NCBI GenBank assembly: GCA_013285655.1
Contig: JABDHI010000006.1
Span: 933 to 64,932 of the forward strand
Direction: 5' to 3'
DNA length: 64,000 nucleotides
Source: Bacteroidota bacterium
GTDB taxonomy: Bacteria; Bacteroidota; Bacteroidia; JABEUT01
In this document: positions 3,494-42,377 of the stretch, one piece after another
How the letters are laid out: each line of letters starts with the position of its first letter
How positions within the stretch are numbered: position 1 is the first letter of the stretch
Translations under genes and position numbers: made by a program
Notes under the pieces: generated by a model
Database searches by the model: none
What the model was told of the DNA's origin: nothing
What the model saw: the letters and a program-made list of their open reading frames with translations, nothing else

Positions 3494-5053
3494 TCACTGA
3501 ATGATAATCTTCTCCAACCTATTCTTATCGGTTATGGTGTAGATGTTGTTGTTATAGGTATCAGCAAACTTATAAGCGACCGGGCCAATAACAACATCGT
3601 TAGGGTTTTGTAAGTTGACAATGGCAACATGCTGCTTGCCGATATCAAACAATAACAAAAAGCCTTTTACAGGTAGCAATGATGAAATGTATTTAATATC
3701 CTTAAAATGTTTTGTGAAAAGTAATTGATGTGTTTTCGCATCAAAGCACCACAGGTAATTATTAAATGCTATAAATAACCTAACGCCATCGCTGTTTTCG
3801 GCCATATAAACGCCATCGTCGTAAGCACTGTATACGGGCGGCTTCCCGATCGCTGAATCAGGAAAATAGCTGGTGATGTCGTATCGCCATGATGTAGCCA
3901 GTGAATCGTAGGTATCGGTTAAGAAATAATGTGTTTCTGTTTTGCCTTTTTTATTTACAATCTGAAGTATCTGCAATGGTCCGGTCGGTAGCGGTAGTTC
4001 CGCATCGGAGTAATCATTTGGGAATTGTGTTTCTTTTAAAACTTTACCCGTGTGCAGATCCATAACAATGGTGAACAATTTCATATCGCCATTTTTGTAA
4101 GTAACCACCTTGGTAAAGCTTACCGAATCACCATCAACGGTAGTGTTGTCCTCGTAGTTTATGCGTTCGGCATTGCTATCGTTAAATGTAGCTGGGTATT
4201 GCGGGAAAAAAGGAGAACTGCCTGCAAAATATTTCGTTTGGAGTCTTTCGGTATGCCATGTGGTATCGGGTTCCCAGGTAAACCTAAAGTGTTTCCAATC
4301 GAACACCAGGTTTGCTGAGCCATGGTCGGGGTCATGAGTGTATGATTCAGTCTTAAGTAAATAATGTTGGGTGTTGTCAATTTTCCAAAGTAGTTTAAGC
4401 GTGGTGAGGTCAATACCAAAAGTGTATTGCGTAACGTGAATGATAAGTACATTTTTGCAGATCATTTTAATATCGCCATGCACGTTACCGGCAATTTTTG
4501 TAGCCACACCCGTTTTAATGCTTACCCGATAAATAGGGCAGTCGAGCGTGTCGTCGTCGCCAATGGCTTGTAAAAAAAGGGTGCTGTCTATCTTGGTGAG
4601 GTACGATATGGTATAGTCGTCGATATTGGTGAGGAACGAATCTTTCAACGTGTATTGGTTCAGCATAAAAAGGCTGTCGTGGTGCGTATGGTAAATATTT
4701 GTGCTGTCTTCGCAATACAATGCATGCTTACTAACAGTTAATGTTTTTACTTTTTCACCGGTTTTGCCATTTATGTAAATGTATTGGGGGCCTACCTCTT
4801 TCGATTTTACATAGAGCTGGTTTATCCTTACCACATCGCCAAAAAAGTTTAGCGGGTTTAAGTCAGGAAAGAGATTGGTTGTTATTGCTGTACTCCACAC
4901 AGGGTGCTGCATTGCGCTTAATACTGCTGCAGATGTTTGTGCTTTGCAGTAAACTGCAATAACCAGAGTAAGTATGAAGCAGAGTTTTTTCAATATTTTA
5001 CTGTTGCATAAAAATAGCAAATAAGTTGCTATTTGTTCCCCTGCCGACCTCAC
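3494..5053 (-). CDS. hypothetical secreted protein
   Basis: 519-aa uninterrupted ORF with a hydrophobic N-terminus (CFILTLVIAVYCKAQ); no family recognised; the exact start is uncertain. Confidence 0.55.
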   Translation of the reverse strand: MRSAGEQIATYLLFLCNSKILKKLCFILTLVIAVYCKAQTSAAVLSAMQHPVWSTAITTNLFPDLNPLNFFGDVVRINQLYVKSKEVGPQYIYINGKTGEKVKTLTVSKHALYCEDSTNIYHTHHDSLFMLNQYTLKDSFLTNIDDYTISYLTKIDSTLFLQAIGDDDTLDCPIYRVSIKTGVATKIAGNVHGDIKMICKNVLIIHVTQYTFGIDLTTLKLLWKIDNTQHYLLKTESYTHDPDHGSANLVFDWKHFRFTWEPDTTWHTERLQTKYFAGSSPFFPQYPATFNDSNAERINYEDNTTVDGDSVSFTKVVTYKNGDMKLFTIVMDLHTGKVLKETQFPNDYSDAELPLPTGPLQILQIVNKKGKTETHYFLTDTYDSLATSWRYDITSYFPDSAIGKPPVYSAYDDGVYMAENSDGVRLFIAFNNYLWCFDAKTHQLLFTKHFKDIKYISSLLPVKGFLLLFDIGKQHVAIVNLQNPNDVVIGPVAYKFADTYNNNIYTITDKNRLEKIIIQ

Positions 5054-5100
5054 CCTTTATCCCTCTCCTTGCTCAAGGAGAGGGTCGGAATATTCTTAAA

Positions 5101-6420
5101 TTATTGTGGCATAAAAATAACTTTTCCGCTAATACCATTTGCACCATCATTACCAGGCAGGCCATCATTGCCTCTGTTGCCTGACATGCCCGATGGATTG
5201 CCGCTGCCGCCACTGCCGCCAGCACCACCGCTGCCGGCCATGCCTCCCATGCCACCAGTGCCGGGTATGCTTACTGCAGTAAGTAAATTTAAGTAGGGTT
5301 GTGCTGCAGCGTTATAAATTACGGTAATGTTTCCTCCGTTGCTACCATTGTCGCCATCAGTACCGTTACCGCCATCGTCGCCATTACTGCCATCGCTACC
5401 GGGCCCTTGAGATGTAATAGTAGTTGTACTTGTTGTACCATCGGCGTTAGTGGTAGTTTCATCAGTAGTGCTTATTATACCATCTGAACCATTACTGCCA
5501 TTGGCGCCTGTATATCCTTGTGTGCCATCGGCACCGTTAGCGCCCTTGGTGCTGATATGTATAGAGCCGCCCACAGTATTAAATACATAGTCGTACGCCT
5601 TTTTGCCAATGCTATCACTAACATGTATATGCATAAGCTTGGCATGTATAAGGCTATCGTCATACACATTAGCCGTAACCTTTAGGTTGTGGCCGGTATT
5701 TGCCGATGCAATGTTGCATTGGTAATTTGCCACATAATCGAGCACTATTTGCAACGTATCTTTTATGGCAGGATCTTTAGCTAAAATAGCTATCAGCCTC
5801 ACTTTGTCGTTTATAATTTTAACAGGGTCGTTATCTATCTTCAGGTCACCCTTCGATTTTGATATGTGGCTGCCACTATCAGCGGCAAGTACAAAATCTT
5901 GCAGATTTTTAGATGCAGGAGCCCATTTGTCAACTGTCATTTTGTTATTGTAAGTGGTATGTATGCCAAACCCCACATGGTTGCCGGGAGCTTTAGTAAA
6001 GGTGCCTTTGGTTAATATTTTTATTCCGGTTTCGTAGTTGTAAGGTATTTTGCCGGTGAGTAAAAGAGCGCCTTTGCCGCCAAGTAACCATTTGCGGGCA
6101 TAAACATGCACCGTTACCGAATCGCCTTTTTTGTAAAGAGTTGTTGAGCCACCCATTTTAATTTTACCATTGGTATAGCTGCCACTGTCAACCTCAATGC
6201 GGTATTTGGTCCAGTTGTAGTTGCCATTTAATAAGCCACGGGTTTGTTGTAACACGCCCTTGTCAGAATAGCTGACAATGCCAATAGGCACTTTATTGCC
6301 AGATATGCGCAATACGTTAGTATCGTATTTTAGTTTAATAGTTTGTTGGCTGCCAGGTGTGGTTTGCGTAAAACCGATAGCTGCAATAAATAAAGCAGCT
6401 AGTGTGGTTGGGGTTTTCAT
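5101..6420 (-). CDS. secreted protein with C-terminal collagen-like G-X-Y repeats
   Basis: Signal peptide MKTPTTLAALFIAAIGFTQT. The C-terminal ~130 aa are dominated by GxxGxx triplets (GANGADGTQGYTGANGSNGSDG...GNRGNDGLPGNDGANGISG). Confidence 0.65.
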   Translation of the reverse strand: MKTPTTLAALFIAAIGFTQTTPGSQQTIKLKYDTNVLRISGNKVPIGIVSYSDKGVLQQTRGLLNGNYNWTKYRIEVDSGSYTNGKIKMGGSTTLYKKGDSVTVHVYARKWLLGGKGALLLTGKIPYNYETGIKILTKGTFTKAPGNHVGFGIHTTYNNKMTVDKWAPASKNLQDFVLAADSGSHISKSKGDLKIDNDPVKIINDKVRLIAILAKDPAIKDTLQIVLDYVANYQCNIASANTGHNLKVTANVYDDSLIHAKLMHIHVSDSIGKKAYDYVFNTVGGSIHISTKGANGADGTQGYTGANGSNGSDGIISTTDETTTNADGTTSTTTITSQGPGSDGSNGDDGGNGTDGDNGSNGGNITVIYNAAAQPYLNLLTAVSIPGTGGMGGMAGSGGAGGSGGSGNPSGMSGNRGNDGLPGNDGANGISGKVIFMPQ

Positions 6421-6667
6421 AGGGGTTTGGGGTAAAAAGGTTTTAAAAATAATAAATAATTACCTGAGCGTTCTTTAACAAAAGTTTGATGAAGATTTGG
6501 TGAGCAGGTTTAATTGCAAAAATTTCAACAAGGTGGTTTTTAACACTTTTTAAGAAATGCTGTGTTTTACCGCAGAGACGCAAAGGAGCAAAATTCCCGT
6601 CATTGCGAGGAACGAAGCAATCTTATCAAATTATGGTAGCCTTTATTCAAGGAAAATTTAAGATGAT

Positions 6668-6883
6668 TTATTTGGGCAAGCCCCGGTCATGTCTTCCCCA
6701 CCAAAGCTTATAGCCAGCAATATTTTCGTAATAAGAAAGATTGAATCTATATGTTCCCGAGTTAATAAATTCTTCTCCCGTTCCACAGAACCCCATTGGC
6801 TTTCTGTATCGTATTTTGTTTTTAACTACTCCGGCGACAAGGACTGCAATAAATAGTAGAAATATGCTGAAGATACTTCTCAT
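6668..6883 (-). CDS. small membrane-anchored hypothetical protein
   Basis: 71-aa ORF with an N-terminal TM segment; its start overlaps the stop of the upstream gene by 4 nt. Confidence 0.3.
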   Translation of the reverse strand: MRSIFSIFLLFIAVLVAGVVKNKIRYRKPMGFCGTGEEFINSGTYRFNLSYYENIAGYKLWWGRHDRGLPK

Positions 6884-7413
6884 TTGCTCGCTCCTCTTTT
6901 CAATATTTCAGCTCTTAACTCATCAGCCGGAAAGGCAGCGCAGTAGTTACCAATACGCTTTCGCTTACCATTGTATTTATAAAAAAGCACTATCGGGTTT
7001 TTGTAATAGTTTGATGTTAAACGCAGCGATCGTAAAAGAGATTGTGCCCTACTGTTTTCTTCTACATACAAATCGGTTAGTTGGTTTATTTCATAAACCT
7101 CGTTAGTTTCTTTCTGGCCAATTATTTTGTTAATGGTCATGGTTGTTTTATCGAGCGTAATGGTTTCATTGCCCTTAAATATCCACATTATCCATTTGCT
7201 TGTTTCAACAAACCTGAATGCAATTTGTATAAACGCTAAAGGAAACAGAATAAGTAGAAAATTGTTTTTCAAATACAATGGTGCTTTTATAATGAGCAAA
7301 TAGGCTAAAAGCCCCAACGCTACTAAGGAGAAGGCCAGTTGAAATACGAAGGTGAATTTTAAACCGCTAGCGGGTTTTAACTCGAGTGTGTAAATGTCTG
7401 TTGTTTGATTCAT
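6880..7413 (-). CDS. hypothetical membrane protein
   Basis: 177-aa ORF with two clear hydrophobic helices (FVFQLAFSLVALGLLAYLLII, LLILFPLAFIQIAF). Confidence 0.55.
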   Translation of the reverse strand: MNQTTDIYTLELKPASGLKFTFVFQLAFSLVALGLLAYLLIIKAPLYLKNNFLLILFPLAFIQIAFRFVETSKWIMWIFKGNETITLDKTTMTINKIIGQKETNEVYEINQLTDLYVEENSRAQSLLRSLRLTSNYYKNPIVLFYKYNGKRKRIGNYCAAFPADELRAEILKRGASK

Positions 7414-7726
7414 AATGGTGGTGTTTGTTTTGTAAAAATAGCAAATAATTATCTGTTAATCTGTGGCTGTTTTTTTGACGCGAATTTCACGAATTTTTAC
7501 GCCAATTTCGTCCACCATTTACCATTCACAATTCACCATTTTTTTGCTAAGCAGTAGCTACGAGGAAGCATATGCTTAATTGTAGCTTATTTTTTGTGCC
7601 TAAAAACCGGTATGTAAAACCGCCGCCGGAACACCTGCTATTGTTTAATTACCAGTTATTTAAGAGCGATGTTGTTCTGTGATTATTTAATTAGAAATTT
7701 TAATAAGAAAAATGAAATTTTGGGCA

Positions 7727-7814
7727 CTTTTCTCTCTTTCTTTTTTAAGGGGATATAGAAAGGGGGGTATAAGGGGGGAAAGAAAAATGGGAGTTTTTTT
7801 CTTTCTCTCTTTTC
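7727..7814. repeat. homopyrimidine mirror repeat flanking a purine-rich core
   Basis: CTTTTCTCTCTTTCTTTTTT (7727-7746) mirrors TTTTTTTCTTTCTCTCTTTTC (7794-7814). The two flank AAGGGGATATAGAAAGGGGGGTATAAGGGGGGAAAGAAAAATGGGAG. Confidence 0.8.
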
Positions 7815-7871
7815 GTAAAACGGTGCGGAATTGATGGCTTGAATTATCCCGATAAATTAGTTCGGTTTTCA

Positions 7872-8042
7872 GGCACAATTCTCTGCAACTATGTGTCCGT
7901 TTCTGTTATCGTCACTTTTCACCTCACGTGCCGTCACTTTGTGCGCTGGTATTTCGCGTTAGGGATGGCAGCGGTTACCCCGCAGCGCAGCGAGGAGTAA
8001 AAGCGTACAGCCCGACCCGACGTTAGGAGGGGAACGCCCAAG
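7872..8042 (+). repeat. AB-element, full copy
   Basis: GGCACAATTCTCTGCAACTATGTGTC...CACCTCACGTGCC, then a linker, then GCGTTAGGGATGGCAGCGGTTACCCCGCAGCGCAGCGAGGAG...GGGGAACGCCCAAG. Confidence 0.9.
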
Positions 8043-8070
8043 AGTTTAAAACAAATCTAAATTTTTGAGT

Positions 8071-8127
8071 TGTTGAAAACTAACAGCACAAAATGTTTAT
8101 TAGTATTTAACATTGTGTTTACCTTTG
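8071..8127 (+). promoter_or_regulatory. conserved promoter block ending in a Bacteroidota -7 box (TACCTTTG)
   Basis: This 57-nt block aligns without gaps to 27069-27125 (blocks TGTTGAAAACTA, TGTTTATTAGTA and AACATTGTGTTTA.CTTTG are identical). A TAnnTTTG box lies at 8120-8127. Confidence 0.6.
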
Positions 8128-8238
8128 CAACGTCAAACAAACGCTGAATTTTGAATTCTAAATCTTAAATTTTGAATTGAAAACGGCGAACCACAGTACT
8201 CATTTAGAATTTAAAATTCAACATATAAAATTGCAGTT

Positions 8239-9339
8239 ATGGGAGCCATACCATTCAAACACTACTCGCTCGATGCACCCGATGCAGCCTGGGATGCAGA
8301 TGCCGAAATTGCCAAGGCCGGTACCGACGACCTGCGCGTTATGTGCGCCTGGGACGATGTTACCCGCCCTGAGCAGAAGAACGGCTACAAGCTGCCTCAC
8401 CACCGTGCCGATACATACCACACCAACCTCAAGGGCCTTATGGCCGCAGGCAATGCGCTGATGGGTGCACGTGGCGGCGTTGAAATACCGAAGTATGATT
8501 TAGATGCTGTGAAAGCGCATTTGCAAAAGCACTACCACGAGTTTGGCCGCACTGCTCCCTGGGAGAGCAAAGCCGAATGGCGCTGGTACCAAACCAAAAG
8601 CGCAGGCAACAACTCACTGAAAGATGTTGATACCACTGGCCGCACTGTTTGTGGATATTTTGCATCGTTCAACACCACGGACAGCGATGGCGATATGTTT
8701 GCACCCGGTTGCTTTGCCAAAAGCCTGAACGAAAACAGTAGTCGCATTATGCACCTGTTGCAACACAACACCCTGCAACCTATTGGCCGCCCCAGCTTGC
8801 TGAAAGAAGATAACACGGGTTTGTACTTCGAAACACCTATTGCTAAAACACAACTGGGCGATAATGTGTTACAACTTTACCGCGATGGTGTGTACAAGGA
8901 GCATAGCGTGGGCTTTGAGATGATAAACTCTTCAATCGAAGCCCTTCGACAAGCTCAGGGTGACCGTCATGTTGAGCCTGTCGAAACATCTGTAAATGTT
9001 ATTAAGGAGGCTAAGTTGTGGGAGGGCTCAACCGTTACCTGGGGAGCGAACCATAATACTCCGCTGGTTGGCATAAAATCAAATTACTCACTGCCCAATA
9101 CTCACTACTCACATCTAACATCACAGAATATTCTCGATGAGGCGCTGGAGCGCAGTTCGCTTATTTACAAGCAGCTGCACCGCGGCAACCTACACGATGA
9201 TACCTATACACTTTTAGAGATTGAGCTTAAGCAGTTACAGGCTCTTTTGGCAGCAAGGCCGTGCGATCACACTTTGCCCGCTTCAAACGATGCTGAGCTT
9301 AATGTGCTCAATAAGATCAATTCTTTGCTTAAACAATAA
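8239..9339 (+). CDS. phage prohead (capsid maturation) protease, HK97/S78 family, with an N-terminal extra domain and C-terminal coiled coil
   Basis: Protease core GRTVCGYFASFNTTDSDGDMFAPGCF...LLQHN...HSVGF...AKLWEGSTVTWGANHNT. The N-terminal KLPHH domain is common in phage protease fusions. The gene lies directly upstream of the capsid gene. Confidence 0.85.
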   Translation: MGAIPFKHYSLDAPDAAWDADAEIAKAGTDDLRVMCAWDDVTRPEQKNGYKLPHHRADTYHTNLKGLMAAGNALMGARGGVEIPKYDLDAVKAHLQKHYHEFGRTAPWESKAEWRWYQTKSAGNNSLKDVDTTGRTVCGYFASFNTTDSDGDMFAPGCFAKSLNENSSRIMHLLQHNTLQPIGRPSLLKEDNTGLYFETPIAKTQLGDNVLQLYRDGVYKEHSVGFEMINSSIEALRQAQGDRHVEPVETSVNVIKEAKLWEGSTVTWGANHNTPLVGIKSNYSLPNTHYSHLTSQNILDEALERSSLIYKQLHRGNLHDDTYTLLEIELKQLQALLAARPCDHTLPASNDAELNVLNKINSLLKQ

Positions 9340-9361
9340 AGGCATTATGATGACTTGGATA

Positions 9362-9532
9362 TGGCACAATCCTTTGCATCTATGTGTCAAGTCCTATCAT
9401 CTTCTCTCATCACCTCACGTGCCATTACTAAGGCGCGCTGGTGTTTCGCGTTAGGGATTGCAGTGGAAAGCCCGGAGTGTAGCGAGGACTTGTAACGTAA
9501 AGCCCGACCCGAGGAACGAGGGGAACGCCCAA
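9362..9532 (+). repeat. AB-element, full copy
   Basis: TGGCACAATCCTTTGCATCTATGTGTCAAG...CACCTCACGTGCC, then GCGTTAGGGATTGCAGTGGAAAGCCCGGAG...GGGGAACGCCCAAG. Confidence 0.9.
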
Positions 9533-9634
9533 GTAATAATGAATAGATTCTTCGCTTCACTCAGAATGACAAAAACTGAGATTGCTTCGTGCCTCGCAAT
9601 GACGAATACAGAAATAACAATTAAACACTGAACA

Positions 9635-10861
9635 ATGGAAAACAAACAAGTGGACGCTATCGTGAAAGAAATAAGCGATAACATAAACACCATAAAAACA
9701 AAAGGCGAAGCGCAAGATGCGCAGCTAAAATCGCTCGATGCTAAAATAGCAGCCAACCAATGGCAGCTGGGCGATAAATACGAGGCCCTGCGTAAGGACT
9801 TCGACCAGATGACTGCTATGCTTAAAAAAGGCAGAATATTTGGTGCTGCCGACCGGGGCATGACCGTAAAAGACTTACTGCATGCACAACGCGAAGGACT
9901 GGCGAGTCTGAGGAATAAAGCCGGCATACCGGTAAGCTTGTCGTTAAAGGCAAATCATTTATTTACCAAAACGGCAGGTAATGTTACCGAAGGTAGCAAC
10001 CTAATAGGCACTGATGCTATACCACCTACCAGGCTCGAAGGTATTTATTCGCAACCCTTAAGGCCGGTGCATATACGCCAGTTTATGAATACTACGGCTA
10101 CCGATAGTAACCAGATACTGTTTAACCAGTTGACCGGTGAAAACGACGGAAGTGGAAGCACAGCAGAAGGAGCCAGTGCGGCACAGAGCGACTTTACCAT
10201 TACCGCGCAAGAAGTGGTAGTACGTAAGCTGAACACTTACCTTACCATTAGTAAAGAAATGATGGAAGATGCCGACTTTGTAGATAACTACATTAACACC
10301 CACGTAGCCGGCCGCTTGCTGATGCAGGAAGATACCCAGATAATATCGGGTAACAACAGTGCGCCAAATTTGCAGGGTATTGCACCTATTGCATCGGCGT
10401 ATGCTAACCCAATTATTCCGGGTGCTACACCAAGCAGCATTAACTATTACGATGTGCTGCACCAGGCTGTTACCCAGGCTCGCGTGTTGTACTACACACC
10501 AAACTATATTATCATTCACCCGAACGATTATAACGCATTGGTGTTAAGCCGCGATAGTTATGGCCGTTACCAGTTTCCGCAAATGATAAGCGGAGCACCG
10601 GGCACCTTCTTTATTAACGGTGCGCAGGTTATTGCTAACACGGCTATGACACAGGGTTACTTCCTTGTCGGCGATTTTCAACTGGGTGCTACCCTTGCTT
10701 ACCGCGACGAGATAAACGTAACCTTCAGTAATCAGCACGTAGACAACTTTGTAAAGGGGTTTATTACTGTGCTTGTTGAAGAACGCCTTGCCAATGTGGT
10801 TTACCGACCAACCGCATTTGTGTATGGCAACTTTAACCAGGCGGAAGCTTCTGGCTCGTAA
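9635..10861 (+). CDS. phage major capsid protein, HK97 fold
   Basis: 408 aa with an N-terminal coiled-coil delta-like region, then sequence typical of HK97-family MCPs (LNTYLTISKEMMEDADFV...ISGNNSAPNLQGI...YIIIHPNDY). It follows the prohead protease. Confidence 0.85.
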   Translation: MENKQVDAIVKEISDNINTIKTKGEAQDAQLKSLDAKIAANQWQLGDKYEALRKDFDQMTAMLKKGRIFGAADRGMTVKDLLHAQREGLASLRNKAGIPVSLSLKANHLFTKTAGNVTEGSNLIGTDAIPPTRLEGIYSQPLRPVHIRQFMNTTATDSNQILFNQLTGENDGSGSTAEGASAAQSDFTITAQEVVVRKLNTYLTISKEMMEDADFVDNYINTHVAGRLLMQEDTQIISGNNSAPNLQGIAPIASAYANPIIPGATPSSINYYDVLHQAVTQARVLYYTPNYIIIHPNDYNALVLSRDSYGRYQFPQMISGAPGTFFINGAQVIANTAMTQGYFLVGDFQLGATLAYRDEINVTFSNQHVDNFVKGFITVLVEERLANVVYRPTAFVYGNFNQAEASGS

Positions 10862-10975
10862 AGCAAAGCCCCATCCCAACCTTCCCCATTAGGGAAGGAA
10901 ACAGAGCTTGCTAAAGTCCTCCCCAATGGGGAGGATTTAGGAGGGGCTTCTATTTAGTTCTTTCATGGTTGGTTT

Positions 10976-11014
10976 GGCCGGGCTTTGTTCTTAGGGACGG
11001 GTCCGGCTTTTTTT
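10976..11014 (+). terminator. rho-independent terminator after the capsid gene
   Basis: GGCCGGGC...GTCCGGC stem followed by TTTTTTT. Confidence 0.55.
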
Positions 11015-11173
11015 ACAATTAAGAATTAAAAATTAAGAATTACGAATGAAAACGAGGGCGGTTTTTGTCCCCCGCTGGAGGGGGAAGTGGGAGGATTGAA
11101 CAAGCAAGCCGGTATTTTGCAGAAACAAGGATTTTTCGTAAATTTGTATAGGTTACTCATTAATTATATAGCC

Positions 11174-11410
11174 ATGACTACACTGCAAATAAAGAATAAG
11201 CTTATCAGTACCATAAAATCGGTTAAAGACCCTGATGTATTGGAAGATTTGTACAGGTTATTGAATATTGAGACAGAGGATATTGAGAAGCTGAAAATCC
11301 CTGCGCGTGTAAAGAAAGCAATTGCTCAAGGACAAAAAGATATTAAAGAAGGCAGACATTATACAAATAAGCAGGCAGACGATCAGATTGACCGATGGCT
11401 AAAGAAATAG
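11174..11410 (+). CDS. type II antitoxin (partner of the ParE/RelE toxin)
   Basis: 78-aa acidic protein (MTTLQIKNKLISTI...) that overlaps the toxin start by 16 nt. The ORF-track start at 11087 lies in repeat DNA, so the internal ATG at 11174 is preferred. Confidence 0.6.
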   Translation: MTTLQIKNKLISTIKSVKDPDVLEDLYRLLNIETEDIEKLKIPARVKKAIAQGQKDIKEGRHYTNKQADDQIDRWLKK

Positions 11411-11697
11411 TATGGTCGGCACTGGCAATACACGACCGTAAGAATATTTTATCGTACTGGATAAACAGGAACCACTCTAAGTTATATAGTATTAAACTGG
11501 ATATGCTTATTAGAGAAGCTGTAAAACTAATTGCAGAATACCCGTTTATTGGTAAGCCAACAGATGCCAGAGGGATTAGAGCTAAGAAGGTGCGCGATTA
11601 TTTTATTCTTTATACAGTAAAAGAGAATCAGATACAGATATTAACTATATGGGATACCCGCCAAGACCCACAAGACCTAAAAGAAAGATTGAAGTAA
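11395..11697 (+). CDS. type II toxin, RelE/ParE family
   Basis: 100 aa with family-typical layout (EIVWSALAIHDRKNILSYW...YPFIGKPT...YFILYTVKENQIQILTIWDTRQDP). Confidence 0.75.
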   Translation: MAKEIVWSALAIHDRKNILSYWINRNHSKLYSIKLDMLIREAVKLIAEYPFIGKPTDARGIRAKKVRDYFILYTVKENQIQILTIWDTRQDPQDLKERLK

Positions 11698-15220: not shown

Positions 15221-15494
15221 GCCAATTAAGAATTAAAAATTAGTAATTAAGAATTGAGGAACAATGTTGAACCCAATAGTTTTAAGAGTCCCTTTAGGGG
15301 ATGGGATGAAAATGAAATACTTGATGAGAAGCTACACACATTTTTTCGACCTGTGTGCAATTGTGTGTAATGATAATTTATTAATGGAGTGAATGCTTTA
15401 CACAAATACCCTGTTTCGTGTAAAAATATGTAAAGTAAAAAGAAGTCATAAGTGGAAAGTTGTAAGTCGTTAGAGAAACAGTAAATTGTAGTTT

Positions 15495-26326: not shown

Positions 26327-26974
26327 TTATAGAAGATTATGATTTAATATGTTATGATAGTTAGTATGTTCATTTAAGGAGGCAACAGTGTAAAGGGGAG
26401 CATTATTTACTTGTTGTGAATCAGTACGCACTATTTGAAGGATTTCCTCTAGTATATCTCTGTCAGATCTCTCTGGTTCTTTTGTTGTCTCGGTTTCCTT
26501 TATCGCAGACAATTCTTTTTCAAATGGCGCCCATAATGCGTCAAATAAATCATTTAGGGTTTGGTCAGGAATAGGTTTTTCTTTATTGTCTGATAATTTG
26601 ATGTTTATAGTATGAATGAGTTTTTTTATGTCAGCCTTTGAGAATATAGTATGTTGAAATTGCCCAAGTGGAGGTTTTACATCACTGGGCGTCATATCTA
26701 GAAGAAAAGTACATACGTGGGCGTCTTGTGTCTTCGATAGCGCTCCAGCTTCAAAAAGTATCCATTCGGAAGATGTGTTTTCTTTGTTTAAGCATAATAT
26801 GCCAATTTTAGTGTTCTCTAATTCTACTCTTATTGTATCTATACCTCTCGACCCTTTTTTTATTTCTGTTGAAATAAAAGGCTCTACCGCTTGAATAACT
26901 TTTTCTAGAAATTTCTTCAATGCCTCAGCAGTTGCTTTGCTTTTTTCCCCTGACCAACTAAAAAATACTTTCAT
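26327..26974 (-). CDS. TIR-like domain protein (ThsB/COG4271-like N-terminus) with an uncharacterised C-terminal region
   Basis: N-terminus MKVFFSWSGEKSKATAEALKKFL...IGILCLNKENTSSEWILFEAGALSK matches the bacterial TIR-like pattern (F-x-SWSG...I-x-C-x-T/N-x-EN...W-I-x-FEAGALSK). The gene sits in a visibly AT-rich islet. Confidence 0.65.
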   Translation of the reverse strand: MKVFFSWSGEKSKATAEALKKFLEKVIQAVEPFISTEIKKGSRGIDTIRVELENTKIGILCLNKENTSSEWILFEAGALSKTQDAHVCTFLLDMTPSDVKPPLGQFQHTIFSKADIKKLIHTINIKLSDNKEKPIPDQTLNDLFDALWAPFEKELSAIKETETTKEPERSDRDILEEILQIVRTDSQQVNNAPLYTVASLNEHTNYHNILNHNLL

Positions 26975-27063
26975 GATTATGAATTTGTTTCTTTAAATGT
27001 AGTAATAATTTTGAAAGCCCAATGTTAGTGTGTCATGTTACTCTTCTGTGTAATATTTTTTTT

Positions 27064-27125
27064 CGACCTGTTGAAAACTACATAACTATTTTGTTTATTA
27101 GTAGTAAACATTGTGTTTATCTTTG
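27064..27125 (+). promoter_or_regulatory. conserved promoter block (CGACCTGTTGAAAAC box + TATCTTTG -7 box)
   Basis: Positions 27069-27125 align without gaps to 8071-8127. The box TTCGACCTGTTGAAAAC recurs inverted at 42052-42072. A TAnnTTTG box lies at 27118-27125. Confidence 0.6.
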
Positions 27126-27222: not shown

Positions 27223-27831
27223 ATGGCACTTACCGAATTAAAAATAGTAACACCTCCGGCGACTGAGTTGGCTCTTGCCACCGTCAAGAGTTATTTGCGC
27301 GTTGATTTTACCGACGACGATACCACTCTCGGTTTGTTGATTCAATCAGCGCGAGAAAGAGCAGAGCAATACTGCAACCGCTCATTTATAACCCAGACGC
27401 TGGAGGCATACTACGATAAAATAGAAAAGAACTTCACCCTGCCACGTGCGCCCATACAAAGTGTAAGCACCGTTAAACTTATTTACCTGAACGAGGTAAG
27501 TACGCTTACCCAAAATGCCGACTACTATGTTATGGGGAACCAGGATCAATGGTTGACTATTACAGCCACTACGTATAACCTGCCTCCCGGCTTTTCTCCC
27601 GGCGATGATTTAAGTAGGTATCACCTTGATGTAACCTATACTGCCGGTTATGGCAGTTCATGGACGAGTGTACCCATGGGCATACAAGAAGCTATTATGA
27701 AAATGGTTGGTGCCGCTTATGAAGTACGTGAAGATGTTGCACAACTCAGTAATAAAGGCATAAGCAATCTTATGGAGATACCCAATGATGCAAAAAGCCT
27801 TTTGAATGCATACAGAGTAGTTCCTTTATAA
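27223..27831 (+). CDS. phage head-tail connector (gp6-like / DNA-packaging) protein
   Basis: N-terminal signature LALATVKSYLRVDFTDDDTTLGLLIQSARERAEQYCNRSFITQT, typical of the gp6-like head-tail connector family. Confidence 0.75.
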   Translation: MALTELKIVTPPATELALATVKSYLRVDFTDDDTTLGLLIQSARERAEQYCNRSFITQTLEAYYDKIEKNFTLPRAPIQSVSTVKLIYLNEVSTLTQNADYYVMGNQDQWLTITATTYNLPPGFSPGDDLSRYHLDVTYTAGYGSSWTSVPMGIQEAIMKMVGAAYEVREDVAQLSNKGISNLMEIPNDAKSLLNAYRVVPL

Positions 27832-28019: not shown

Positions 28020-28391
28020 ATGATAGGAACACTTCGATATAAAATAAACGTACATCAATTATCTTCCACCACCGATGGCGCCGGAGCTTTAAATGACCAG
28101 TCGATTGGTACCACTAGCCCTCAAAAATCATTGTTTTCTTCAGTTCGTACAATTTCTACACAAATGCATATGTACAATCGAGGAGTAGATATTACATCCT
28201 CACTAACTCAAAATTCAGTCGCAATACCAAATCTCGTAATGTATGCACTAGGTGCTAATAACGCTGGAAGTATTGGTGCACCGACCTCTGGGCAAATTGG
28301 GATTTCATATGCCGGTGCAGGTAATATTAACCAAGTAACTTTATATAATGTAATCCAATCTTTTGCCATTAGAATTGGATTTAATGTGTGA
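28020..28391 (+). CDS. possible phage head-closure / head-tail adaptor protein (only the N-terminal motif is recognisable)
   Basis: MIGTLRYKINVHQLSSTTDGAGALND resembles the (I)G-x-LRH-R-I-x-I start of SPP1 gp16-type head-closure proteins, and the gene follows the connector. The remainder is unrecognised and AT-richer. Confidence 0.35.
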   Translation: MIGTLRYKINVHQLSSTTDGAGALNDQSIGTTSPQKSLFSSVRTISTQMHMYNRGVDITSSLTQNSVAIPNLVMYALGANNAGSIGAPTSGQIGISYAGAGNINQVTLYNVIQSFAIRIGFNV

Positions 28392-28503: not shown

Positions 28504-29637
28504 ATGGAGGAATTAAACGGTAGAACCAAGTATTTTTCGCAACTAGATGGCCTTAGGTTTATCGCTATATTGGCTGTGATGCAATGTCATTGGATTCGGA
28601 CTCCTCTTCCCGCTACAGGATTTTCTGGTGTTAACTTATTTTATGTTATTAGTGGATTTCTAATTACAAGAATATTATTAATGAGTAAGGAAGATAATAA
28701 AGGGCTTGGAATATCATTAAAGCGGTTTTATATACGTAGAACCTTGAGGATATTTCCTATTTATTATCTGTCTATTTTGGTATTGTTTATATTGAATATA
28801 CCTGGGGCCAGACAGGATATTTATTGGTTAATAACTTATACTTTCAATATAAAACTAGTGTTGCTTAATGCTTATGTGCATGGCGAAAATTATGGCTTCT
28901 ATGCTCATTTCTGGAGTTTATGTGTTGAAGAGCAGTTTTACTTCTTGTTCCCAATTTTGATATTACTTATTCCTAAAGCATATATGAAGCGGTTTTTGAT
29001 TGGTGTTATTTGCATTGGGTTTTTTACGAGATTTTTCTTAATGTTTCAATCAAACCGATCATTTGAAACAGGTCTTTTACCTGATTGTTTAGATTCCTTT
29101 GGGTTAGGTGCTTTATTGGCCTTTTATATTTTAAACGAGCCTGAAGCATTAAAGAAAATCATGATGAACAATCTTATATTTATAATCAGTATGATTTCTT
29201 ATATAGCTTTAGTAGTTATTGATTACGAGTGCTTTTCTATTTTTAATCCAGTTTATTGCTTATTAGATAGATTTTTGTTTTCGTTATGCTGTTTTTGGAT
29301 TGTTGGGAAGGCTTCTTTGGGTATGCATAAAGGATTAATGAAGGGATTTCTTGAAAATAAAGCAGTCGTTTACTTAGGTAAGATTAGTTATGGAATATAT
29401 GTGTATCATGTGTTTGTGGAAGAATTTTTAAATCATGCACTTTACCCAATTTACAGAAAGTGTCCAGTCTTTCTTCAATATTATTGGAGGGTACTTATAA
29501 AGTATGGACCTGACAATAATAGTAATTGGGTATACAGATTTTTAGGATACTCTATAGTGACTGTAATAGTTGCATCAATATCTTGGTACGTAATAGAAAA
29601 GCCAATAATCAAGTTAAAAGATAAGTATGCTAAGTAA
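28504..29637 (+). CDS. acyltransferase family 3 (OafA/YrhL-like O-acyltransferase), integral membrane
   Basis: YFSQLDGLRFIAILAVMQCHW start and about 10 hydrophobic helices across 377 aa. Confidence 0.85.
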   Translation: MEELNGRTKYFSQLDGLRFIAILAVMQCHWIRTPLPATGFSGVNLFYVISGFLITRILLMSKEDNKGLGISLKRFYIRRTLRIFPIYYLSILVLFILNIPGARQDIYWLITYTFNIKLVLLNAYVHGENYGFYAHFWSLCVEEQFYFLFPILILLIPKAYMKRFLIGVICIGFFTRFFLMFQSNRSFETGLLPDCLDSFGLGALLAFYILNEPEALKKIMMNNLIFIISMISYIALVVIDYECFSIFNPVYCLLDRFLFSLCCFWIVGKASLGMHKGLMKGFLENKAVVYLGKISYGIYVYHVFVEEFLNHALYPIYRKCPVFLQYYWRVLIKYGPDNNSNWVYRFLGYSIVTVIVASISWYVIEKPIIKLKDKYAK

Positions 29638-30127: not shown

Positions 30128-30619
30128 ATGGATATTACCAAAGCATTTACCGTACTTCAACAGCTTGAAGGTGGCGATAAAGTAACCAATATTACGGGAG
30201 ACTTAGGCGGCCTAACCAAATATGGTATTAGCCAGGCTTCGCACCCAGGCCTTGATATAGCAAATTTAACAGCCGACCAGGCCCAGGCTATTTATCAAAC
30301 CCAATACTGGCATACGGCTGGCTGTGATCAGCTTAAGCCCGATCTGCAATATATTCATTTCGATACTGCCGTTAATATGGGTGTTGGAATGGCTATAAAG
30401 TTGCTGCAAAAAGCAAGCGGAGTTGCTGAAGATGGTGTTTTAGGGCCGAATACTATAAATGCAAGTAATACTATATCTGCTGAAGCATATTTGCTTACCA
30501 GGTTAATGCATTATAATGCTATTATAGCCAACGATGCCAACCAGTATAAGTTTTGCAGGGGCTGGACAAATAGAATAGCCACCTTGTTTGGTATGAGCAG
30601 GAATGGAGAGCTTATATAG
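30128..30619 (+). CDS. GH108-family lysozyme (N-acetylmuramidase) with a PG_binding_3-like C-terminal half; phage endolysin type
   Basis: LQQLEGGDKVTNITGDLGGLTKYGISQ (EGG catalytic motif, GG-x-T-x-YGI), followed by GVAEDGVLGPNTINA. Confidence 0.8.
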   Translation: MDITKAFTVLQQLEGGDKVTNITGDLGGLTKYGISQASHPGLDIANLTADQAQAIYQTQYWHTAGCDQLKPDLQYIHFDTAVNMGVGMAIKLLQKASGVAEDGVLGPNTINASNTISAEAYLLTRLMHYNAIIANDANQYKFCRGWTNRIATLFGMSRNGELI

Positions 30620-41510: not shown

Positions 41511-41873
41511 CTACTTTTTTTCGGTGTTTTGTAAACCCGGTATTTGTCTTTCGCTATAGCCACGGTTCCGGCCACGGATAGTAAGAATGAACATGGTGCG
41601 CTGCAATTCAAGCTCATAAAGTACTTTATCTACATCCCACTTAACTGCCAGGGTCATTATACCTTCTACTGCTTTTTTGTAAACAGGGTCTTTTGCCAGC
41701 CAGCGGTAATGGGTGCAGCGGTCAATGCCGGCATCTTTTGTGGCACGGGCTATTACACCCATGCGTTTATCCAGGGCAATAAGCATCTTTTTCTTTTTCA
41801 GTTTTAGCTGCATTACTGCCTCGTTCCGTATTCGTTCGGGTATAAGGTCGTTAATTGTGGTATCAGATATCAT
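41511..41873 (-). CDS. HTH protein resembling a phage small terminase subunit (phBC6A51-type HTH)
   Basis: KKKMLIALDKRMGVIARATKDAGIDRCTHYRWLAKDPVYKKAVE...FILTIRGRNRGYSE parallels the TerS pattern (...AGISRSTYYRWL..D.EF...V...FLLK.KGK.RGY). The first 9 codons of the track ORF are repeat-derived, so the ATG at 41873 is preferred. Confidence 0.45.
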   Translation of the reverse strand: MISDTTINDLIPERIRNEAVMQLKLKKKKMLIALDKRMGVIARATKDAGIDRCTHYRWLAKDPVYKKAVEGIMTLAVKWDVDKVLYELELQRTMFILTIRGRNRGYSERQIPGLQNTEKK

Positions 41874-42051
41874 ATTGTCATGTTGAGCCTGTCGAAACAT
41901 ATTCCGCTATTTTACCGCAGAGGCACGCTGAGAAAAACCCGCAGAGAGCCGCAGAGGTTTCACCCCAAACCCGTAAAGGGCTATTGGGGTACCAAACCAT
42001 ACTACAAAAATAAAGCTGTTTTAGTGCTTTTTAACGGTTGAATGGTTGCTG

Positions 42052-42072
42052 GTTTTCAACAGGTCGAAAAAA
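42052..42072 (-). promoter_or_regulatory. inverted copy of the TTTTTTCGACCTGTTGAAAAC box
   Basis: GTTTTCAACAGGTCGAAAAAA is the reverse complement of 27058-27078. It lies upstream (minus-strand sense) of the TerS-like gene. Confidence 0.5.
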
Positions 42073-42083
42073 CTTAGATGGCA

Positions 42084-42377
42084 CTAAAGTGGTTTCTTCG
42101 AAGGGTTTTTACTGGTGTTCCAAAAGTAAACCAGATATAAGGTTGAGCCTGAAATCCTATATATAAGAATGGTGTGTTTGGTGATTACTGCTTCACGCGT
42201 ATCTTCTTTACCGGCATGGCGGTATGATAAGGGGAAATGCTGTATATGATTGATTACCTCGTCAGTCTTTTTAATAAAATTAACGATCTCACGCTGCGAC
42301 CATTTTTGTTGCAGGTAAGTTAAAACAGTTTCAAAACTTTTTTCCGATTCCGGTGTCCAAATTATTTTTTTAACCAC
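42084..42377 (-). CDS. type II toxin, RelE/ParE family
   Basis: 97 aa: KIIWTPESEKSFETVLTYL...HFPLSYRHAGKEDTREAVITKHTILIYRISGSTLYLVYFWNT. Confidence 0.75.
   Translation of the reverse strand: MVKKIIWTPESEKSFETVLTYLQQKWSQREIVNFIKKTDEVINHIQHFPLSYRHAGKEDTREAVITKHTILIYRISGSTLYLVYFWNTSKNPSKKPL

Follow-up and report, generated by a model that had tools for sequence, protein, structure and literature searches.

The 57-nt block upstream of the phage-like genes in this stretch of DNA is a real, species-conserved composite promoter that stands before every scattered piece of a phage-like gene set resembling a gene transfer agent (GTA). What a sequence-only reading had taken for a single signal splits in two, a distal box found lineage-wide and a putative operator specific to the phage modules. 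Together these provide a concrete cis-regulatory signal (motif, geometry and regulon list) for an apparent domesticated multi-locus phage-derived particle system. A literature search gave no description of the motif. The window, i.e. the whole 64,000-nt stretch analysed, is C6:933-64932 of G000, a 2.69-Mb MAG in 121 contigs that is 69% complete.

Promoter copies in the window

The gap-free alignment of 8071-8127 with 27069-27125 has 44 identities in 57 nt, the three identical blocks that had been named (TGTTGAAAACTA; TGTTTATTAGTA; AACATTGTGTTTA.CTTTG) are present, and each segment ends in a TAnnTTTG -7 box, as had been noticed (Table 1). The extended box before the adaptor gene had also been reported as inverted upstream of a TerS-like gene; this copy of the 21-mer is exact, and is followed by a -7 box and a 129-aa ORF. 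The core TGTTGAAAAC lies 38-39 nt 5' of a TAnnTTTG box at 8071, 27069 and 42061(-). With up to three mismatches allowed, the 17-mer form of the box has 3 matches in the window versus 0.10 expected. All three -7 boxes (TACCTTTG, TATCTTTG and TATTTTTG) are canonical and are 97-111 nt before start codons.

Table 1. Positions of promoter elements and phage-like genes in the window, and of full copies of the non-coding core in G000
Feature	Position	Strand	Remarks
Protease-capsid unit, type A promoter	8064-8127	+	box variant TTTGAGTTGTTGAAAAC; -7 box TACCTTTG at 8120-8127
Protease-promoter hexamers	8094-8099; 8107-8112 (TTAACA); 8116-8121	+	
Prohead protease, S78	8239-9339	+	
HK97-type major capsid protein (MCP)	9635-10861	+	
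Partial copy TTTTTTCGACCTGT	15341-15354	+	loop of a diverged hairpin repeat (ACACAC...GTGTGT)
Distal box, extended form TTTTTTCGACCTGTTGAAAAC	27058-27078	+	invariant core TGTTGAAAAC at 27069-27078, about -61 to -52 from the putative transcription start
Adaptor unit, composite type A promoter	27069-27125	+	box, three hexamers, -7 box TATCTTTG at 27118-27125
Adaptor-promoter hexamers	TGTTTA 27092-27097; TAAACA 27105-27110; TGTTTA 27114-27119	+	
gp6-like head-tail adaptor	27223-27831	+	first gene of unit
123-aa head-closure-like ORF	28020-28391	+	orthologue matches PHROG head closure Hc1
GH108 lysozyme with PG_binding_3 domain	30128-30619	+	downstream of adaptor unit, co-oriented
129-aa HTH protein	41511-41900	-	paralog (31-37% identity) of the TerS-like gene adjoining TerL (C56)
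Box-only promoter	42005-42072	-	TTTTTTCGACCTGTTGAAAAC 42072-42052, 39-nt spacer, TATTTTTG 42012-42005; without TGTTTA hexamers
Full core copies (G000)	C14:45015-45184; C15:12222-12379; C10:35772-35924; C11:5710-5867; C50:8593-8750	+	
Full core copies (G000)	C15:47266-47109; C30:518-361; C88:424-267	-	

Geometry and promoter position

A genome-wide search found three exact copies of the 17-mer and, per genome, some 21-25 loose sites, not the hundreds of unrelated sites at which the motif would be just another repeat. The loose pattern TGTT[GT]AAAA[CAG] occurs 114 times in G000, and when its spacing to TAnnTTTG was scanned from 10 to 90 nt, 21 of these boxes had one, 15 of them at 38 nt and 6 at 39 nt, any other distance being represented by at most one case. 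The reverse-complemented box showed no distance peak over the same range. When every 7-mer was scanned, without bias, at each offset before the 2675 TAnnTTTG boxes of G000, the positional peaks were solely overlapping tiles of GACCTGTTGAAAAC, 16- to 37-fold enriched. The distal box is used by about 1% of the TAnnTTTG boxes in this genome, and some 15 promoters besides those of the phage-like gene set share it at the same distance from the core promoter. Such a fixed distance and orientation to the core promoter is as expected of a class I activator site, and the fixed position, asymmetry and strict phasing of the box point to a reading of this kind.

The canonical sigma-A promoter of Bacteroidota consists of a -33 TTTG and a -7 TAnnTTTG, and in Flavobacterium psychrophilum the latter spans -12 to -5 (PMC9723704). 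Because TAnnTTTG was taken as -12 to -5, the box core would lie at about -61 to -51, and its extended form would reach about -68, relative to the inferred transcription start site (TSS). A logo of 124 box promoters from eight genomes has no clear canonical -33 TTTG; promoters of this sort, about 20 per genome, belong to one subclade. Most of the 124 have a T-rich tract that lies 8-13 nt past the box and about 25-30 nt upstream of the TA. The element is lineage-specific and strictly phased, and it comes from a phylum in which promoter-proximal activator architecture is poorly charted.

Hexamers distinguish the phage-type promoters

The promoters that we call type A have three hexamers between box and -7 box: TGTTTA, which fills -38 to -33, TAAACA at -25 to -20, and a second TGTTTA at -16 to -11 that overlaps the -7 box. 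Read together, they make up a pair of palindromes that overlap and span the core promoter. A search of G000 for TAAACA-N3-TGTTTA-NN-TTTG with at most one mismatch returned exactly five promoters, all of the phage type. The set TGTTTA-N7-TAAACA-N3-TGTTTA, which the sequence-only reading had noted just as identical blocks, tracks the phage-like modules, and the hexamers occur only in the phage-like regulon. A further sub-type (type B), which includes a holin promoter, has a TTAC-N5-GTAA palindrome in the spacer.

Several familiar elements were considered and rejected. The SOS (LexA-like) boxes of Bacteroidetes are GGA-N5-TCC or CTAA-N5-TTAG palindromes (PMC8565304), and the palindromes here (TGTTTA-N7-TAAACA, TAAACA-N3-TGTTTA and the TTAC-N5-GTAA of type B) match neither. 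If TGAAAAC were the -35 element of an ECF sigma factor, a -10-like element should follow 16-17 nt downstream, and none is conserved there. Nor, by inspection, is the IHF consensus WATCAANNNNTTR satisfied.

Genes under the promoters

Besides the genes of the window (Table 1), G000 has, on another contig (C56), TerS-like, TerL and portal genes whose promoter reads TTGTTGATAAG, then 38 nt of spacer, then TATTTTTG, and it has a GTA_holin_3TM gene on C28 behind a box promoter (53 bits versus a cut-off of 24.8 bits). Two more TerS-like HTH paralogs map to C2 and C22, and the one on C22 has the exact 17-mer before it. Genes for structure, packaging and lysis are found in separate loci under one common promoter signal, as in a GTA-type regulon. 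Ten box promoters have a short leader to a credible ORF, and seven of these drive phage-like or TerS-like genes. The DNA-binding proteins found in the regulon are solely TerS-like HTH proteins, all of them behind box or type A promoters, which gives a narrow list of candidate binders, few in number and apparently autoregulated. Protease and MCP are separated by structured repeats that have no promoter of their own (9339-9635), as are TerL and portal.

The TerS-like ORF next to TerL (C56:3526-3967) is perhaps frameshifted or mis-called: a different frame of C56:3848-3967 is 55% identical to the C-terminal 40 residues of a TerS-like protein of G014. The paralog on C2 (188 aa; locus C2:92725-95950) is syntenic with an MBL-fold hydrolase and parA-parB, an arrangement shared with L112 and L119; given this synteny, the locus is probably close to the chromosomal origin region. 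Its AF2 model is mediocre (pLDDT 63), and a comparison of the model with the PDB gave no significant match, the best Foldseek E value being 0.2 and the folds only generic HTH or TerS-like ones. Downstream of the paralog on C22 (229 aa; locus C22:~37600-35900, minus strand), the one with the exact box, are genes for a HipA_C-like kinase, whose score is below the Pfam cut-off, and for a protein with a HIRAN domain. Possibly this group forms a defence or toxin module that rides on the regulon.

Other genes adjoin the phage-like units of the window. A TIR-domain protein is encoded immediately 5' of the adaptor promoter (26327-26974, minus strand), and genes for ParE-family toxins, at 11395-11697(+) and 42084-42377(-), flank the phage-like units, one of them ending 12 nt before box 3, that of the 129-aa HTH gene. 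An Acyl_transf_3 (O-acetyltransferase-like) gene at 28504-29637 comes directly after the head-closure-like ORF. Since the neck and tail genes of relatives occupy this position, the acyltransferase-like gene is likely to be a replacement or an insertion.

Conservation across congeners

Outside one GTDB genus of uncultured soil Bacteroidia MAGs the pattern is all but absent. Sites with both box and -7 box number 26 in G014, 21 each in G000 and G003, 20 in G011, 12 in G007, 9 in G001, 8 in G015 and 7 in G012; the other ten congeners have 0-3, and a reversed-pattern control gave 0-1 per genome. The eight box-rich genomes (7-26 sites) are carriers of the phage-like gene set. G017 also has the set, yet only 2 boxes. 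As the box-rich genomes form one subclade, their co-occurrence with the set may reflect shared ancestry alone.

The promoters themselves are conserved. Among the protease promoters of eight species, all of which retain box, hexamers and -7 box, 25 of 26 invariant alignment columns fall inside the block and the DNA outside is unalignable. In the adaptor promoters of six species TGTTGAAAAC-N13-TGTTTA-N7-TAAACA-N3-TGTTTAnnTTTG is kept, the orthologues in G001, G007, G011, G014 and G015 retaining every element. In these alignments the block upstream of the protease and adaptor genes stands out as a clear phylogenetic footprint. TTCGACC, the 5' extension, is preferred without being invariant; it varies among orthologues and recurs elsewhere, for instance in the protease promoter of G014.

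The genes have been inherited along with the host. The protease is present in 9 of 17 congeners and the adaptor in 8 of 17, at 76-92% amino-acid identity, and the two are always 16-19 kb apart with cellular genes (MORN lipoproteins, toxin-antitoxin pairs and others) between them. The cysK-like neighbour of the adaptor is 77-84% identical in the same genomes, a divergence about equal to that of the phage-like proteins. This host-like divergence and conserved synteny are what vertical inheritance predicts, with the eight genomes counting as one lineage and not as independent cases. A more distant congener, G002, has a contiguous prophage-like version that is 48-54% identical and lacks the box; the nearest MCPs of sequenced phages are 31% identical. 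Did the motif come from a phage? A scan of IMG/VR found no contig with the promoter context, and its two matches were chance ones, both within a coding region of a GC-rich phage.

Type A promoters in soil metagenomes

Scanning soil metagenomes for the type A pattern gave 34 sites, 32 with assessable downstream DNA. In 26 of the 32 the promoter precedes an adaptor/tail, protease/capsid or terminase/portal module or a TerS-like HTH gene: the adaptor in 11 cases, protease/MCP in 4, TerS-TerL(-portal) in 5, the family of the 188-aa HTH protein in 5, and in 1 a stand-alone TerS-like gene (G014_169-type) followed by mnmG. In the congeneric contig L117 (Ga0206835_1108, 4613-11541) the adaptor promoter heads a contiguous neck/tail operon. 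After the adaptor come Hc1 and Neck1, then the tail terminator and the major tail protein, next a TAC-like protein at the place of the chaperone, and then a tape-measure-like protein of 262 aa. A gene for a 460-aa secreted protein interrupts this operon. Given such an operon, the gene set of the relatives, as read from genes alone, appears to encode a complete small siphovirus-like particle. A search of the 69%-complete G000 assembly for tail genes of the L117 type found none. Having retrieved this operon from a relative, the composite motif can serve as a search key for further modules in metagenomes.

Box promoters outside the phage-like genes

The sequence-only reading had proposed one shared regulator for the dispersed genes. 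This holds insofar as one promoter architecture fronts the separated phage-like units, but the box alone is neither phage-specific nor a dedicated 'late' signal, because a TTCGACCTGTTGAAAAC box also fronts a few host genes and some 10 units of CGACA repeats that are non-coding. About 10 box promoters of G000 have, 50-130 nt after the -7 box, a conserved core of ~170 nt or its 3' part, which reads TGTCGCAAAATA..CTGAAAATCAAT..ACGACAAnTACGACACGAATTTCCCAAG..ATTGAAAATCAAT..ACGACAGAAAACGACATGAAACGACA and contains ACGACA repeats in 10-bp phase and two TTGAAAATCA motifs. The genome has 8 full copies (Table 1) and 3 partial ones, and 7 of the 8 full copies are downstream of a box promoter.

As a structured RNA the core fares poorly (RNAalifold -1.9 kcal/mol, almost no covariation); as a small ORF it lacks conserved start codons and frame in 3 of 8 copies; and tblastn finds nothing to suggest a TerS pseudogene. 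Rfam gave no match at the gathering score in the window and, among 13 leaders, one sub-threshold RAGATH-30 match, which falls on a hairpin, with no match for the ~170-nt core. No tRNA or stable RNA was found downstream of box promoters. The core upstream of gdhA is kept between G000 and G014 (nhmmer E = 8e-14), where the repeat unit is CCGCCA in G014. This unit lies 5' of a second, native gdhA promoter, and box-poor congeners have the native promoter alone. With a native promoter behind the core unit, the box units near rpsF, rpmB, gdhA and mnmG look like separate, non-coding units and not like the promoters of those genes. A different arrangement is seen in the DUF423-M32 carboxypeptidase-pckA operon, which is directly behind a box in six species. 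The lutA-like site lacks the 5' flank and is kept also in box-poor genomes; it may be unrelated to the box family.

A partial copy of the box upstream of MORN paralog 6 had been assigned to the same family and placed at 15337-15350. It actually lies four bases further on (Table 1), where, since it has no -7 box at 38/39 nt and sits in a hairpin loop, it does not belong to the promoter family. The hairpin (window 15330-15375) is a diverged member of a separate family of about 12 genomic copies (e.g. C14:45290-45340) of the form GCGACAC-loop-GTGTCGC (AATGCGACAC-(ATTTTTTTGATCTGTGTGCAAAA)-GTGTCGCATTT), with arms AATGCGACAC-loop-GTGTCGCATT, whose conserved loop TTTTTTTGATCTGTGTGCAAAA resembles the 5' half of the promoter box. 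This repeat often closes the non-coding box units in the manner of a terminator.

Regulatory models

How might one promoter type serve scattered loci? We lean, with slightly more belief than doubt, towards a class-I-type activator site and a module-specific operator that wire a vertically inherited, dispersed GTA-like set. The 57-nt block would then be a two-layer, sigma-A-type promoter. Its first layer would be the asymmetric distal box (core TGTTGAAAA(C), long form TTTTTTCGACCTGTTGAAAAC, about -68 to -51), a putative docking site for a sequence-specific activator that touches RNA polymerase from the class-I position. The hexamers, as the second layer, would be the operator for a module-specific regulator, which might be a repressor or a Q/GafZ-like loading factor; the TerS-like HTH proteins, encoded behind box or type A promoters themselves, are plausible hexamer binders. 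The two layers would co-ordinate the scattered packaging, head, lysis and (in relatives) neck/tail modules.

An activator may not be needed if the box (~-60 to -51) and the T-rich tract (~-42 to -37) are UP-element-like contacts for the alpha C-terminal domains, making a constitutively strong promoter with no dedicated regulator. Their positions match the UP subsites of E. coli, the tract recurs in most of the 124 promoters, and the downstream targets are functionally mixed, all of which favours this model. We nevertheless consider it unlikely, as the core is a near-invariant, G/C-containing 9-10-mer in strict orientation, unlike the degenerate A/T tracts of UP elements; the motif is found in one subclade of the genus though the alpha-CTD is universal; and only about one in a hundred TAnnTTTG boxes has it. 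We give similarly little credence to a phage-derived 'late' activator, such as a TerS-like HTH protein, that binds the box itself, the non-phage sites being recruits or decoys. The predominance of phage-like and TerS-like genes behind short-leader box promoters speaks for it, as do the restriction of the regulon's DNA-binding proteins to apparently autoregulated TerS-like HTH ones, the abundance of boxes in the same genomes as the gene set, and the state of gdhA, which has no box in box-poor congeners and in G000 and G014 has the box unit apart from it, 5' of the native promoter. Against it are the box directly before the DUF423-M32-pckA operon in six species and the occurrence of the HTH family also in G009, which is box-poor.

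The remaining models concern the hexamers and the block as a whole. If the hexamers (-38 to -11) were a Q-/GafZ-type antiterminator-loading element, RNA polymerase would read through the hairpin repeats within the units. The location between the -33 and -7 regions recalls the putative GafZ element of CcGTA between -35 and -10 (PMC11150451), BaGTA uses a Q-like antiterminator (10.1101/2024.11.20.624540), and the promoterless structured repeats between protease and MCP and between TerL and portal would fit. However, no Q-, GafZ- or BrrG-like gene was identified and no pause element defined, and the palindromic layout would equally suit a dimeric operator, so that we rate this model as quite improbable. 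Hardest to credit is a mobile promoter-bearing cassette with no regulatory meaning, although G000 is full of repeat families, repeat modules often follow box promoters, and a box unit was apparently inserted 5' of the native gdhA promoter. The copies are alike at fixed-position motifs only, a likeness that does not extend to the DNA between or around these motifs; orthologous sites persist from species to species, and the ~20 copies are all in promoter geometry. REP or MITE elements should align over their whole length, which these do not: pairwise BLAST of 22 sites with flanks gave promoter similarity in four pairs (19-79 nt), and the other matches were to unrelated repeats further downstream.

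Returning to the favored model of activator site plus operator, the gene set that it would control bears, in its sequence, the marks that a GTA-like (viriform) element should have (PMC9662315, PMC5026251). A bolder proposal, doubtful as it stands, is that the subclade has a genuine GTA (viriform) whose modules were scattered and have come, via the composite promoter, under the control of autoregulated HTH regulators derived from TerS; the same box would also fire about 10 non-coding units per genome. These CGACA units may be regulatory RNAs, or packaging or initiation sites tied to particle production. We know of no GTA described in Bacteroidota, and this one, if genuine, would be the first.

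Comparison with known systems

Class I activator promoters include those with CRP at -61.5 and those with the marboxes of MarA/SoxS. The promoters described here are similar in having an asymmetric site of ~17 bp centred at about -59, strict helical phasing and a weak or absent upstream core element, but the box resembles neither the CRP nor the marbox consensus, and the activator is putative. Phage late-promoter systems with an upstream activator site (P2 Ogr/P4 Delta) have this site at about -55, in P2 as a TGT-N12-ACA dyad. There too all morphogenesis operons are preceded by a single short element at a set distance, near -55; unlike in P2, the present box is asymmetric and the genes are not in one phage genome. 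With the sigma-A promoters of Bacteroidota (PMC9723704) all sites share the canonical -7 box; they differ in showing no clearly conserved TTTG at -33, in a conserved box that lies about 20 nt further upstream, and in the palindromic hexamers that span the spacer in type A.

The closest parallels are the GTAs, in which dispersed loci are integrated by one regulator, GafA in RcGTA (PMC6363796) and BrrG in BaGTA (10.1101/2024.11.20.624540). RcGTA with GafA is a multi-locus regulon with a direct activator (PMC6363796, PMC5026251), and the CcGTA promoter has IHF and GafY sites upstream and the GafZ element noted above (PMC11150451). As in RcGTA and CcGTA, head, tail, packaging and lysis genes lie here in several chromosomal loci and are vertically inherited, and the holin is of the GTA_holin_3TM family; as in CcGTA, the promoter is multi-element, with upstream sites and an element between the core hexamers. 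Unlike those systems, the present one has a Bacteroidota -33/-7 core promoter, an unrelated motif and a distal box common to non-GTA promoters, and is known from its genes alone; no homologues of GafA, GafY, GafZ or BrrG were identified in it. An activator- or operator-controlled, multi-locus phage-derived regulon is a known kind of system, of which the present one would be a variant.
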